DNA of 64,000 bases from Chloroflexota bacterium (GCA_027623195.1 JAQBUT010000011.1:1-64000), one strand, 5' to 3'; counted from the stretch's first letter, positions 36,937 to 41,247 are shown. Program-made: numbers and translations. The notes: generated by a model not told the origin, from the sequence alone.

Positions 36937-37374
36937 TTATGCGACCTTGATCTCCAGGCGCTTGGCCTTTTTGGCCTCAGCCTTGGGGAAGGTAATCGTG
37001 AGCACACCGTCCGCGTATACGGTCTCTACCTTCTCGGTATCAACGGTGTCAGGTAGTCGGATGGCACGATAGAAGTTGCCGGCCCTACGCTCGCGTAGCA
37101 GGTACTTATCACCACGTTCCTCGTGCTTCTCTTTCGTTTCGCCTTTTATGGTCAGGAGATCGTCTTCCACGGTTACGTTAATATCCTCGGCCTTGATGCC
37201 TGGTAGCGTAGCCTTTACCAGTATCTTGTCGTCCTCGGCGACCACATCCAGCGGCACGGCCCATCGTTCTATGTCCGCATCCGCAAGTCCGTCGCCATTG
37301 GAACGCCAGGTCCGATTGAACGCTTCGTCTAGCTTTCGCATCTCCTTGAACGGATCCCATCTCATCATGACCAT
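36937..37374 (-). CDS. Hsp20/alpha-crystallin small heat shock protein
   Basis: RWDPF, LPGI...I.V, RERRAGNFYR, DGVLTI..PK. Confidence 0.95.
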   Translation of the reverse strand: MVMMRWDPFKEMRKLDEAFNRTWRSNGDGLADADIERWAVPLDVVAEDDKILVKATLPGIKAEDINVTVEDDLLTIKGETKEKHEERGDKYLLRERRAGNFYRAIRLPDTVDTEKVETVYADGVLTITFPKAEAKKAKRLEIKVA

Positions 37375-37447
37375 GACATTCTCCTCTCCACTTATTACTT
37401 GTTGCCTCTACTGATGATTGGGCGATCATTCGTCACCCTTCATGACA

Positions 37448-37477
37448 ATTATAATTAGTATGCTTTTAACTTATCAA
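37448..37477 (-). promoter_or_regulatory. Promoter of hsp20
   Basis: Minus strand TTGATA-18 nt-TATAAT. Confidence 0.6.
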
Positions 37478-37544
37478 GAAACTTATAGAAAATAAAAGAA
37501 GTTATGTTGTTGGGTCACATAATATATGCTAAAATCAATTTGCT

Positions 37545-38444
37545 ATGCCAACAAACTATTACGACATACTGGGCGTTTCTAGAAACGCCGACCAAAAAGA
37601 GATAAAGCAGGCCTACAGAAAGTTGGCCCGCAAGTATCACCCTGACCTTAATTCCGGCGACAAAGAGGCCGAGAAGAAGTTCAAGGAGATCAACGAGGCC
37701 AATGAGGTGCTGTCGGACCCAGAAAAACGCACCAAGTATGATCGCTATGGTGACAACTGGAAGCACGCGGAAAGGGTCCAGCAGTCGGCAAATGGTGCGC
37801 CATTCAGGTGGTCCAGTGGGGGAGGGTCTTTCCAGGATGCCGACTTCAGCTCCTTTGGCAACATGGAGGACCTGATGGGTGGCATGGGCGGGGTCTTCAG
37901 TGGCGGTCGCCGCAGGCCCGCACCCAGGCCCCATGTTGATGTAGCTGTGGAAGTATCGCTTGAGGAGGCGTTTTCCGGCACTAAACGTCAGGTATCCATG
38001 CCTTCCGGAACCGGCAGCCGTCGTATCGAGGTGTCGATTCCTGCAGGCGTCAAGACGGGTTCGAGGGTTCACATCGCTGTCGACAAAAATACGCAACTGT
38101 TCCTTCGAATAACGGTGAATGCGCATCCCATATTCCAGCGGGAGGGCAACGACCTCTATACCGACGTTAGCATACCGTTTGAGGACGCTATTCTAGGTGG
38201 TGACGTCGATGTACGGACACTAAAAGGGAAGGTTCGCCTGAAGGTGGCACCTGACAGTCAGGGTGGTCAGAAGATTCGTCTGGCAGGGCAAGGCATGCCT
38301 GTCCTGAATGACATCAAGACTCGCGGCGACCTTTATGTGACTCTTCGCCCTACCCTGCCCAAAGGCATTACAGACGAAGAGCGAGAGCTTCTGGTGAAGT
38401 TCAAGGCCTTGCGCGCTGAGGTTGAAGCGGTGGAGGCGGAGTAA
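37545..38444 (+). CDS. DnaJ-class chaperone without zinc finger (CbpA-like)
   Basis: J domain with HPD, G/F region, DnaJ C-terminal domain, no CxxCxGxG repeats. Confidence 0.93.
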
Positions 38445-38450
38445 TCGATT

Positions 38451-38777
38451 ATGGCGACAGACGAAATGTTTGGCCATGAAGAGCCAATATTTATCATAAG
38501 CGTAGCTGCACGCATGCTGGGCGTACGAACGCAAACGCTGCGCTACTACGAGCGTCTTGGACTTATCGAACCAGATCGCACTCAAGGCAACCAGCGGATT
38601 TTCTCTCGCAGCGACATTGAGCGAGTGCAGCGCATACGGAGCCTGATGGAAGAGCTGGGTGTGAACCTCGCCGGTGTTGAGGTTGTGCTGAAGCTTCTGG
38701 CGCGGCTGCAGACCGCAGAGGACGAAATTCAGGCGCTGAAGGACCAGAACCAGCGGCTCAAGGAACGCATTTCCTAG
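38451..38777 (+). CDS. MerR family regulator, HspR-like
   Basis: ISVAARMLG...QTLRYYERLGLIEP.RT.G..R, LGVNLAGV. Confidence 0.88.
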   Translation: MATDEMFGHEEPIFIISVAARMLGVRTQTLRYYERLGLIEPDRTQGNQRIFSRSDIERVQRIRSLMEELGVNLAGVEVVLKLLARLQTAEDEIQALKDQNQRLKERIS

Positions 38778-38910: not shown

Positions 38911-39666
38911 TCAGCGGAAAATCTTACTTATCACAACCTCATCGCCGAGTAAGACTTCAACATTTACGGGTTCACGGATTTCTGTAATTATTCGGACGTT
39001 GTAATCTCCCGAAGCTGACTCTATGGTTTCGTATATTCCATCTTCGGTAACTCTCTGTGTTGTGAATACGAATGGCTCAAGCTTAAATAGGCTTAATGAT
39101 GCAATACTTGGGCACGCTGCATAGACGGTAACCGAAGGGACTGAGAAGGGTGTGTCCACTGAGAGAATGGCGTCGAACATAGGCCGACACTTGTGCATTC
39201 CCAATTCTGGATTCGTGAGATTCAATTTTGGCGCCGTTAATTGTGGTGAACCTTTCTTATCTTCTTCAGACTGAGCATGTGGAGGGCTAGGAGAAGGCCG
39301 CGGGTCAGTAATTCTAAATAATTCTGTATAGGTATCGCGCCCATCGGCCCTAGCTCTAATACGTGCCGAATATTCTTTGGTTTCATTGTCCATTGCATTG
39401 GTCATTGCGTATGCCGGTACTGTAAAGGAAACGTGATTTCGCCCCGTCCCCATTAGCTTCAACGGATAACTTACCCCAATCGCAGGGAATTCTACATCGG
39501 CAATCTGAAGCCATAACTCACTCACATCAGTCACTAGCATTGAAGGTCTTAACGTGAGGTGAACCTGCACCTTGAATGTGCCATTGTTGGGTTGCTGGGA
39601 CTTAACCAAGGCCTCGTGTATATCGATGTTCACTGGTGGCGGAAGGAAATCTTCAAACTGATACAC
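38911..39666 (-). CDS. Hypothetical protein (possibly the 3' part of a frameshifted gene)
   Basis: 251-aa ORF with AT-richer codons, no recognised motif, no clear SD. Confidence 0.5.
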   Translation of the reverse strand: MYQFEDFLPPPVNIDIHEALVKSQQPNNGTFKVQVHLTLRPSMLVTDVSELWLQIADVEFPAIGVSYPLKLMGTGRNHVSFTVPAYAMTNAMDNETKEYSARIRARADGRDTYTELFRITDPRPSPSPPHAQSEEDKKGSPQLTAPKLNLTNPELGMHKCRPMFDAILSVDTPFSVPSVTVYAACPSIASLSLFKLEPFVFTTQRVTEDGIYETIESASGDYNVRIITEIREPVNVEVLLGDEVVISKIFR

Positions 39667-39925
39667 TACCCGAATTTGTAACGGATGGTACTTCGGCCTC
39701 TACTGTGACCTTGGGTTTGGTCCACCAAAGACCCCACAGCAGCAGTGCTAAGCCCACAACTGGAAAGCCAATTTGGAAAAAAGAGAGTGTGGGATTGAAA
39801 GTAACGACGGTACTCTCATTGCCAGGTGTGTATCGGTCGATGATGGATAACCACGAGTCAAAAGCACCTGGTGCCGTGACCAAAAGAAAGACGATAATAA
39901 CAACGGCAATTCGGCGTTTGTCCAT
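39653..39925 (-). CDS. Hypothetical two-TM membrane protein
   Basis: MDKRRIAVV...; two hydrophobic segments; TATGAT 6 nt upstream of the ATG; overlaps the next ORF by 14 nt. Confidence 0.55.
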   Translation of the reverse strand: MDKRRIAVVIIVFLLVTAPGAFDSWLSIIDRYTPGNESTVVTFNPTLSFFQIGFPVVGLALLLWGLWWTKPKVTVEAEVPSVTNSGSVSV

Positions 39926-40003
39926 ACGGGAATCATATCTCAACACCCCGCACGAAATAGATATTCACCAATCACTGATTGAAAACCCCCAAATCGCGGA
40001 CGC

Positions 40004-40058: not shown

Positions 40059-40892
40059 CTAATGAGCCAATGAAGGCATACCGCAGAACATTTCGTAATC
40101 GATAAGTTCTGTAACGGTAGGGTTGTCCCCGCATAGCGGGCACTCCGGGTTCCTTCGTAGCTTAACGGTGCGGAAGTCCATATCTAGCGCGTCGATGAGG
40201 AGCAGTCTTCCCGACAGCGACTTGCCGACTCCGAGAATCAATTTGACCGTCTCGGTGGCCTGGATAGTGCCGACCATTCCCGGCAGCATACCTAGCACGC
40301 CGGCCTCGGCGCAGCTTGGCACCTCACCCGGAGGCGGGGGCGTTGGGAACAGGCAGCGGTAGCAGCCAGCGCCCGGCAGGTACACAGACGCCATGCCATC
40401 AAATAGAAGAATGCTTCCATCCACCAGAGGCTTGTTGCTCAGGTACGCCGCGTCGTTTACCAGGTAACGAGCAGGGAAGTTGTCGGCCCCGTTAACGATG
40501 ATGTCGTATTCGGGGATGATGTCGAAGGCGTTCGCCGAGGTAATGGGCTCTTCGTGTAGGATTACATTTACATCCGGGTTGTAAGCTTTCAGCGTGGCGT
40601 AGGCCGATTGAGCCTTAGACTTTCCGATGTCGTCGTTCTGGTGCAGAATCTGGCGCTGCAGGTTGGTAACGTCAACAGTGTCGAAATCGACAATGCCGAT
40701 TGTGCCCACCCCTGCCAGTGTGAGATAAATTGCGATTGGAGAGCCCAAGCCGCCTGCTCCAACCATCAGTACTTTGGCGTCGAGAAGCTTGCGCTGTCCC
40801 GCGCTTCCAACCTGAGGCATGATAATGTGCCGGCTGTACCTTTGAACTTGATAAGGCGTTAGCGCCTGGGTCTGAGTTTCGGTCTGGGTCAT
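40059..40892 (-). CDS. moeB: MoeB/ThiF family sulfur-carrier adenylyltransferase (E1-like, no rhodanese domain)
   Basis: RYSRHI, GAGGLG, NLQRQ, DNFPARY, CYRC, PSCAEAGVLG, CPLC. Confidence 0.9.
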   Translation of the reverse strand: MTQTETQTQALTPYQVQRYSRHIIMPQVGSAGQRKLLDAKVLMVGAGGLGSPIAIYLTLAGVGTIGIVDFDTVDVTNLQRQILHQNDDIGKSKAQSAYATLKAYNPDVNVILHEEPITSANAFDIIPEYDIIVNGADNFPARYLVNDAAYLSNKPLVDGSILLFDGMASVYLPGAGCYRCLFPTPPPPGEVPSCAEAGVLGMLPGMVGTIQATETVKLILGVGKSLSGRLLLIDALDMDFRTVKLRRNPECPLCGDNPTVTELIDYEMFCGMPSLAH

Positions 40893-40995
40893 ATTTGGAT
40901 TTCCTCCGTGGCCTTTAATCTTTAGATGCCTATTCGCAAGAACCGGTGCTACTGTTTAACTAAATCTCTGGTATTCCGGCCCAAAGTTAAGGAAT

Positions 40996-41037
40996 AAAAA
41001 AACTCCACTAAAAACCGCCTGGGGGTCACAGTGGAGC
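40996..41037 (-). terminator. Attenuator terminator in the moeB 5' leader
   Basis: Minus strand CTCCACT...AGTGGAG followed by T7, about 100 nt upstream of the moeB start. Confidence 0.7.
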
Positions 41038-41125
41038 TTGGTCTGGTCGCTGGCCACTGGGAATGGAATCCCACTAACCAACGTTGTTCAAACCTGGTTG
41101 GCCTACTCGAGGCCAACTCCCTGTT

Positions 41126-41179
41126 TTAGACCACCTGATATTTGGTGGAGCAACAGAGGCAGCTAGCTTTGCAAATCAT
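41126..41179 (-). CDS. Putative Cys-rich leader peptide MICKASCLCCSTKYQVV
   Basis: 17 codons with 4 Cys, including a tandem TGT-TGC, between promoter and terminator. Confidence 0.65.
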   Translation of the reverse strand: MICKASCLCCSTKYQVV

Positions 41180-41218
41180 GCTTTTCTCGATAAACAGCGT
41201 TTGCGCGCGTGCATTAGA

Positions 41219-41247
41219 AGTATAGCATGGCGGGGTTTTGACTTCAA
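41219..41247 (-). promoter_or_regulatory. Promoter of the leader-moeB transcript
   Basis: Minus strand TTGAAG-17 nt-TATACT with extended TG. Confidence 0.65.

Follow-up and report, generated by a model that had tools for sequence, protein, structure and literature searches.

The window, i.e., the whole 64,000-nucleotide stretch of DNA analysed here, belongs to a genome which its relatives identify as marine SAR202/Dehalococcoidia. It contains moeB, a gene for an E1 adenylyltransferase, preceded by a structured leader with a short Cys-containing ORF and a terminator. The features of the locus, with positions counted from the start of the window, are as follows.

41219-41247, minus strand: sigma-70-type promoter with an extended -10 (-35 at 41247-41242; -10 ending at 41219)
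41126-41179, minus strand: leader ORF of 17 codons, predicted from sequence, with Cys codons 3, 7, 9 and 10 at 41173, 41161, 41155 and 41152
41145-41151, minus strand: segment 1, seven bases in codons 10-12 that equal the terminator 5' arm sequence (by inspection)
41116-41135, minus strand: segment 2, which would supply the antiterminator's 5' strand (masked folding and consensus fold)
41097-41117, minus strand: local hairpin, present in the MFE structure
41040-41094, minus strand: long middle stem-loop, which in the folding brings segments 2 and 3 together
41021-41037, minus strand: segment 3, terminator 5' arm and predicted 3' strand of the antiterminator (folding)
40996-41010, minus strand: segment 4, terminator 3' arm and seven-T tract (sequence and folding)
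40924-40929, minus strand: GCATC(T), a short conserved motif just before the moeB ribosome-binding site
40059-40892, minus strand: moeB, encoding a ThiF-family E1 adenylyltransferase of 277 aa (above the NF004281 cut-off), followed by its own terminator near 40036-40004

A first-pass annotation of this DNA had named the promoter, the 17-codon ORF with four Cys codons, the terminator and moeB, and the sequence bears out each of them at its position and on the minus strand. The promoter scores 9/12 with TG in a promoter scan; taken alone it is weak, because there are 3 promoter-like sites per 1.5 kb versus 1.1 expected. Transcription probably starts near 41212. The ATG of the leader ORF lies 40 nt past the -10 element, i.e., the ORF is not leaderless, and its ribosome-binding site is weak. 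At the Cys frequency of the genome (0.85%), the binomial chance of at least four Cys in 16 codons is 9e-6, and at the random-codon frequency it is 1.6e-3. The terminator has arms at 41036-41030 and 41009-41003 and seven T at 41002-40996, forms in both the MFE and centroid structures, and lies ~100 nt ahead of the moeB start; a simple terminator scanner missed it because its loop is longer than 8 nt.

As a whole, the 228-nt leader folds to -89.3 kcal/mol (z = -5.5), and 0/200 shuffles are as stable. Rfam gives 0 matches to it up to E = 10, and a DNA search of the genome finds no copies of it beyond chance. The GCATC motif occurs in 27/130 orthologous regions, and its reverse complement in 6. 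On the other side of moeB, two ORFs of 97 and 251 aa (window 38911-39946, minus strand) have no NCBIfam match, and genes labelled from their translations as Hsp20, DnaJ-like and HspR-like (MerR) heat-shock genes lie close by (window 36937-38777). A MerR-like gene is also found directly upstream of moeB in genus g4.

The leader is probably a ribosome-read transcription attenuator of the classical type which would sense charged tRNA-Cys. The leader ORF would be translated in step with transcription, and scarcity of charged tRNA-Cys would stall the ribosome on the Cys codons, allowing the polymerase to read past the terminator into moeB. A stalled ribosome would allow read-through because the Cys-codon ORF overlaps one strand of the predicted antiterminator. 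Segment 2, which makes up that strand, consists of codons 15-17, the stop codon (bulged) and then 9 bases. According to the folding, a ribosome at Cys7, 9 or 10 would cover segment 1, so that 41135-41116 could pair with 41037-41021 while the terminator 3' arm is still to be made. A ribosome at the stop codon would instead cover the 41135-41116 strand, and the terminator would be expected to form. Segment 1 can pair either with segment 2 (1:2, in the MFE structure) or with the terminator 3' arm (1:4, in the consensus that RNAalifold gives for 4 sequences), so without any ribosome it should take one of these partners and transcription would also stop. Having few terminators close to stop codons is a criterion that fits coupled transcription-translation, and by that criterion coupling is plausible in this host: 1.7% of 174 predicted 3' terminators are at most 12 nt from a stop codon.

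We assessed this switch by folding the transcript up to just before the terminator 3' arm while masking the ribosome footprint codon by codon (masks of 6, 9 and 12 nt were all tried for this genome). Without a ribosome, upstream RNA holds the terminator 5' arm with a probability of 0.28. This rises to 0.82-0.83 with a ribosome at Cys7, Cys9 or Cys10 and falls to 0.13-0.14 with a ribosome at the stop, i.e., the modelled leader switches in the direction that the annotation had predicted. The 2:3 antiterminator which it proposed is also predicted by the masked fold, but over a greater extent (41135-41116 with 41037-41021, 15 pairs, stop codon bulged). Its 1:2 helix is present in the MFE structure, yet not every close relative requires it: it does not dominate in genome G001 or metagenome locus L278, where the antiterminator is predicted to form even without a ribosome. 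The concern that the local hairpin would compete for segment 2 largely dissolves, since 6/8 of the hairpin pairs coexist with the antiterminator.

The closest relatives, G001, G002 and L278 (all at genus level), have the same ORF frame and the same CC pair. With their changed bases, G001 (0.94 at Cys vs 0.20 at the stop) and L278 (0.63 vs 0.04) also switch in the masked fold. G002 switches weakly (0.90 vs 0.62), and G004, which belongs to the same family as this genome and whose leader reads MTITCTCCCSC, does not switch (0.67 vs 0.67). RNAalifold on the four genus-level sequences recovers the antiterminator helix plus a possible 1:4 helix. Covariation, counted over these 4 sequences only, amounts to 3/40 pairs changed on both sides, and the middle stem-loop has 2 pairs changed on both sides. 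L278 breaks one antiterminator pair, while the antiterminator strand is kept despite base changes in this genome (G000), G001, G002 and L278. When the full-length terminator is included, it dominates almost all states at equilibrium (0.99-1.0 at Cys9/10), and the switch would therefore have to be kinetic. Kinetic switching is usual for attenuators.

Beyond the genus, we listed 133 loci in the order, of which 13 were not fetched. An automatic rule which calls a CxC-or-CC ORF plus a terminator found the leader in 29/130 genomes of the order; its terminator part is loose (91/130), and it misses single-Cys and odd-start leaders. In a test blind to Cys, 151 upstream regions without an adjacent rrf2 gave 51 with an extended -10 at 190-410 nt upstream and a terminator, and the ORF was chosen by ribosome-binding score alone, ignoring Cys content. 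At least one Cys was present in 39/51 of the picked ORFs (15.9 +/- 3.5 in 100 dinucleotide shuffles), and at least two in 31/51 (3.8 +/- 2.1, maximum 10), these being non-independent draws because many of the leaders are close kin. Lack of Cys-rich ORFs in orthologous leaders had been named in advance as an argument against attenuation, and the count of 31/51 versus 3.8 shows that such ORFs are there. Cys makes up 8.5% of leader residues versus 2.4% in shuffles, and its two codons are used about equally (TGC 43, TGT 42).

The leaders conserve Cys and little else. The number and spacing of Cys vary freely (single Cys, CxC, CC, CxxC), and only the terminator region can be aligned between families, with no aptamer-like core found; a profile of 48 leaders from outside the genus matches the terminator region of this genome at 22.8 bits. 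Presence of the moeB leader shows no association with presence of cysH (8/41 vs 21/89). In genus g4 the leader has been lost and the same promoter is kept next to moeB. Family f8 (L027, L160, L165, L167) has, 140 nt before moeB, a promoter, one short conserved hairpin and a terminator with no Cys ORF, which could be either a shrunken leader or a different switch. The single-Cys leaders of families f14 (L226, L227, L232, L240) and f36 (L197, L200), ~150 nt before moeB, have the peptide D-D-L-F-H-L-C in common, and because it is shared by two families, a sequence-dependent stalling peptide is suggested there.

The masked fold was applied to 46 of the 51 leaders (2 had no Cys ORF, and 3 had a mis-picked frame or no room). 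Among them, 22 switch as predicted, 3 switch the opposite way and 21 do not switch, compared with 2-8 in the predicted and 0-6 in the opposite direction for six shuffled controls; many of the switching leaders are close kin. A plain duplex test for the antiterminator gave no general signal in distant leaders, which did better than a shuffle in 24/49 cases.

The enzyme under this proposed control has no rhodanese domain, passes NF004281 and is the only E1 match in the genome. In the order, the MoeB E1 is near-universal and single-copy (147/151 genomes), and a cysM-like gene or a rhodanese gene lies 3' of moeB in 69/130 genomes, including 18/29 of those with a called leader. The one moeB-linked CysM tested is closest, over its full length, to the mycobacterial CysO-dependent enzyme (3dwg/3dki, E 1.7e-87), and cysE is above its cut-off in 1/61 genomes. 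This genome has four ThiS-family carriers (ThiS, MoaD, a CysO-like protein and a fourth), two JAB proteases, sat-cysC and cysH, with rhodanese located elsewhere. The CysO-like carrier is closest to 3dwg_C (E 1e-23) and adjoins a ThrC-like enzyme: operon C11:44896-46744 (minus strand, L119) encodes a ThrC-like PLP enzyme, a small protein which we take to be NIL-like, and the carrier, which ends in Gly-Gly-Phe. By analogy, this operon may correspond to the MetM/MetO homocysteine route. A rise in E1 would presumably increase the supply of thiocarboxylated carriers from which cysteine or homocysteine is made, and the same E1 probably serves ThiS and MoaD too.

The tie between the E1 and sulfur amino acids is strong for the order. 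For this genome it is indirect, because the moeB operon is split and neither a CysO-type CysM (not found in 3/3 genomes of the genus, best match 42%) nor an NIR_SIR sulfite reductase was found. NIR_SIR and cysE were both missing from the searches of this genome, which is 87% complete, though cysH and sat-cysC are present. The earlier suggestion that the enzyme serves cysteine/sulfur rather than Moco is thus too strong: a single E1 was found alongside four carriers that include ThiS and MoaD, and the CysO-type CysM was not found in the genus. Several rhodanese paralogues are present (C65:83422, C1:16242 and C58:15868, plus matches in G001 and G002). Five distant rhodanese matches, from these three genomes, each have one in-frame TGA, possibly for selenocysteine.

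A second Cys leader precedes cysH, which encodes an APS reductase (TIGR02055). It was found in a loose genome scan at C56:63163-63062 (minus strand, L127) as a 33-codon ORF, MMHEMQSTKCTCCCRS..., with a good ribosome-binding site and a terminator. A strict genome scan for 13 amino acids, requiring a ribosome-binding motif and a terminator, returned 7 rows, and its only Cys rows precede moeB and cysH. Many SAR202 families have this leader conserved ahead of cysH-sat. From 30 cysH loci, 18 were usable (the other 12 had no terminator (7), no promoter (4) or no picked ORF (1)), and the leader ORF has at least two Cys in 18/18, versus 4.1 +/- 1.8 (maximum 9) in shuffles. A G-run past its Cys codons is complementary to the C-rich terminator arm. 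In the masked fold, 5/18 cysH leaders switch and 1 reverses, and the one in this genome does not switch (0.61-0.73 vs 0.56). The cysH leader has no sequence similarity to the moeB leader or to rrf2, so it arose separately. No Cys leaders were seen before the cysM-like gene of this genome, the thrC-cysO operon, mec, the second JAB gene, sat, moaD, thiS or rhodanese. At C3:56641-56860 (plus strand), divergent from mec and before phage-like genes, there is a small three-Cys ORF followed by a promoter-like site and a short terminator; it has no ribosome-binding site and is probably a chance occurrence.

The source of the moeB leader is suggested by genomes of the order which have an rrf2 regulator gene in its place. 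In 48/130 genomes (22 families), a gene for an Rrf2 protein of the Fe-S type, with three Cys, lies at most 1.5 kb upstream of moeB, often with a terminator next. The moeB-linked Rrf2 matches TIGR00738, and its nearest named model is CymR, below the cut-off of that model. In a quick MoeB tree, this genome falls together with nearly all of the rrf2-less leaders in a 72-row clade (SH-aLRT 87, not starred). Within the clade a single rrf2 locus is intact, on a long branch, versus 45/58 of the other rows. An rrf2 of the moeB-linked group has a match in 122/151 genomes, with two copies in five. When it is not at moeB it is in the suf cluster, as in 19/20 of the regions fetched and in this genome (C50:44143-44580). 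The suf-linked copies form a separate clade (support 96), and the two paralogues are almost mutually exclusive across the order (L357-L375), with G125 having both. This genome has lost the intact moeB-linked rrf2, and its only rrf2 of the group is the suf-linked paralogue.

Some leaders retain parts of the gene. A DNA profile of the 3' part of moeB-linked rrf2 was compared with the 151 regions, where controls reach 3.4 bits and relics score 18.3 (G115), 16.1 (G150), 13.8 (G038), 12.8 (G148), 6.7 (G094), 6.2 (G063) and 5.7 (G078). A weight matrix made without the Cys columns finds a Cys codon at the second-Cys position of rrf2 in 10/53 leaders versus 1.44 expected. The Q-R-E-V codons are matched at 10/12 bases or more in 6/53 leaders (shuffles 0.64, maximum 4), and in 5/6 of these strong matches a Cys codon stands exactly 8 codons upstream, which is the spacing of rrf2. 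G004 is among the in-register five, with a stop codon in place of the residue after the third Cys. These computed profiles were used instead of a hand-made motif count (7/53), which was devised with the data already in view and carries no weight here. The promoters agree in type, with a TTGA(A/T) -35 in 43/51 leaders and in 14/29 rrf2 promoters with an extended -10. In this genome the leader's -35 is rare, occurring once among 13 like-patterned sites. Descent of the leaders in relatives from rrf2 thus appears well supported by sequence comparison.

The same gene seems to have collapsed more than once. G038 and G094 are a separate collapse in which no Cys was kept; their promoter agrees at 29/29 bases with that of the intact rrf2 in a relative, G129. 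In family f13 (L239 and L241 vs L228) rrf2 collapsed independently: the promoter is identical, the terminator and a remnant of the C-terminal tail survive, and the Cys codons are lost. Where Cys leaders lie between an intact rrf2 and moeB (families f5, f25, f61, f14 and f37), there is no relic signal, and these leaders look independent in sequence.

For this genome, nhmmer gives no match to rrf2. Cys7 lies eight codons before Gln15, a register which is not significant alone (it ranks 12th of 166 positions), and codons 15-17 of the leader ORF are presumed to be the trace of Q-R-E-V. The same four bases pair with the terminator here and in G004. From the promoter type, the terminator homology, the clade, the register and this pairing shared with G004, we infer, with somewhat more confidence than doubt, that the leader ORF descends from a collapsed rrf2. 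The ancestral order would have been rrf2-terminator-moeB-cysM-rhodanese, and the codon for the second Fe-S-ligand Cys would have been the seed of the sensor. The course of events towards which we lean is that, in one SAR202 clade, a gene for an Fe-S-type Rrf2 heading moeB-cysM-rhodanese collapsed by internal deletion with its promoter and terminator kept, its second-Cys codon becoming the sensor (later CC/CxC) and its E-V codons the antiterminator strand. Control would thereby have passed from a protein reading Fe-S/sulfur to a ribosome reading tRNA-Cys, and other lineages would have gained Cys leaders independently, both ahead of cysH and in the interval separating an intact rrf2 from moeB.

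Two variants of this origin were tried; the first is not supported and the second is rejected. The first was that the intact rrf2 was already the sensor of an attenuator. Among the 16/25 rrf2 operons with a terminator, an operon's own pairing beat that of other families in 7/16 and shuffles in 4/16, and because intact rrf2 operons show no antiterminator signal, we make no claim of rrf2 as a prior sensor. The second would derive the relic from the suf-linked rrf2 by copying. The G150 relic reads R-E-V-W-R-S-V-D-E-A versus R-G-V-W-R-D-V-E-V in the suf copy, and the suf copies form a clade of their own.

The Cys codons themselves allow other readings. The translated leader might control the terminator through its nascent Cys cluster, sensing a metal, Fe-S/sulfane sulfur or redox state in the way that CruR senses copper. 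CruR is a precedent for this (PMC9426467), CxC and CC are motifs of a metal-binding kind, and the ancestral codon stood for a presumed Fe-S ligand. We nevertheless regard such sensing as very unlikely, because the spacing and number of Cys vary freely with no conserved arrest motif, and because the genes controlled are for sulfur assimilation in both cases (moeB and cysH). In addition, CruR needs a conserved 45-residue CXXC-RAPP spacing, while the Cys residues here would still be inside the exit tunnel.

Slightly less probable still is decay alone, in which the ORF with its Cys codons would be a functionless remnant of rrf2, and a leaky terminator would damp moeB constitutively. A relic accounts for one Cys codon, the terminator is kept without a Cys ORF in f8 and in G038/G094, the whole leader is lost in genus g4, and many distant leaders have no predicted switch, all of which fit such decay. 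It does not explain the gain of tight Cys clusters and new starts, given that the Cys of rrf2 are spaced 5-6 residues apart, nor the Cys leaders without rrf2 signal before cysH and between intact rrf2 and moeB, nor an antiterminator strand that is preserved through base changes in G000, G001, G002 and L278.

A peptide acting in trans, as a small sulfur carrier or RiPP precursor that the adjacent E1-like enzyme would modify, is barely credible: the short Cys-rich peptide does adjoin an E1-fold enzyme with a weak TOMM-binding-protein match, but that match is far below those to MoeB models, the E1 is near-universal and single-copy (147/151 genomes), the peptides share no sequence besides Cys and lack a C-terminal Gly-Gly, modification or export genes were not seen nearby, and the same peptide type precedes cysH. 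Equally hard to credit is a riboswitch or T-box-like RNA which binds its ligand directly and has an incidental ORF, for which the strong fold (z = -5.5) and the persistence of a short hairpin and terminator without an ORF in f8 could speak, since there is no Rfam match to E = 10, only the terminator can be aligned between families with no aptamer-like core, and both Cys codons are equally used.

Under the preferred reading, i.e., a tRNA-Cys-sensing attenuator, the kind of attenuator is already known, and what is new is its origin, traceable in relatives and probable for this genome, from the gene of an Fe-S-type regulator. Leader-peptide origins are rarely traceable. Here an intact ancestor, partial relics and finished attenuators coexist within a single order, so that the path leading from a regulator gene to an RNA switch can be followed and reconstructed. 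The attenuator is compact and amenable to testing in a laboratory host, and it suggests that the sulfur-carrier route is the regulated way to sulfur amino acids in an abundant ocean lineage with cysE in 1/61 genomes. To our knowledge, textbooks do not list cysteine among the amino acids for which a terminator/antiterminator attenuator has been tested: the mycobacterial case is translational and the actinobacterial predictions are without terminators. The literature searched, with most subscription journals outside its reach, yielded neither a cysteine attenuator in Chloroflexota nor a description of an attenuator derived from a regulator gene.

Several published systems share some traits with this one. 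For the E1, the mycobacterial MoeZR/CysO/CysM/Mec system shows that a single enzyme can charge carriers for Moco as well as for cysteine (PMC3227635), and Streptomyces MoeZ/MetO/MetM/Mec is a carrier route to homocysteine (PMC13759103 Table 2). Like these, the system here is predicted to have an E1 that charges a ubiquitin-like sulfur carrier; unlike them, it has no fused rhodanese, its operon is split and a CysO-type CysM was not found in the genus. CruR is a copper-sensing uORF of 145 aa with a Cys motif, a fixed CXXC-RAPP spacing and Rho-dependent termination (PMC9426467). The likeness lies in an upstream ORF which carries a Cys motif and governs termination (predicted here). The other CruR traits are absent here, and a CXXC with a C-terminal RAPP is absent from the 51 picked leader ORFs. 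YtgCR of Chlamydia trachomatis, in which codons within a metal-dependent repressor gene sense an amino acid, is intact and its product active (PMC7755916). It is a precedent for repressor-gene codons as the sensor, whereas in the present case a relic would be all that is left of the regulator gene.

Closer in their codons are the mycobacterial polycysteine sORFs. In the study of Ms5788A, these are leaderless and hide a ribosome-binding site, with no transcription termination shown, and no uORF attenuator for cysteine was known to the authors from previous work (bioRxiv 10.1101/834739). Other papers differ in their terms: PMC13402693 terms the mycobacterial elements transcriptional attenuators, citing bioRxiv 10.1101/834739 among others, and PMC13236596 terms them translational. 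Our leader is like the Ms5788A type in having Cys codons in a short upstream ORF and in the control, predicted here, of sulfur/cysteine genes (including rhodanese in the mycobacterial case), and unlike it in having a 5' leader and an intrinsic terminator. In Actinobacteria, Cys leader peptides have been predicted before cys operons, with no conserved terminator hairpins found (PMC1262725). Runs of Cys codons are common to those predictions and to our leaders, and the difference is that the terminators here are conserved and alignable between families.

The closest match in mechanism is the classical trpL/hisL attenuator, which two sources describe as an ORF rich in codons for one amino acid with mutually exclusive antiterminator and terminator, placed ahead of genes that supply the amino acid in question (bioRxiv 10.1101/834739; PMC1262725). 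The enriched ORF and the intrinsic terminator are both present here, and the exclusive antiterminator is predicted in G000, G001 and L278, so the leader resembles the trpL/hisL type in its short one-amino-acid ORF, its predicted exclusive antiterminator and its intrinsic terminator. It differs from that type in its amino acid (cysteine), in its target (a sulfur-carrier E1), in an antiterminator predicted to close a multi-branch junction with the stop codon bulged, and in its apparent origin from a transcription-factor gene.
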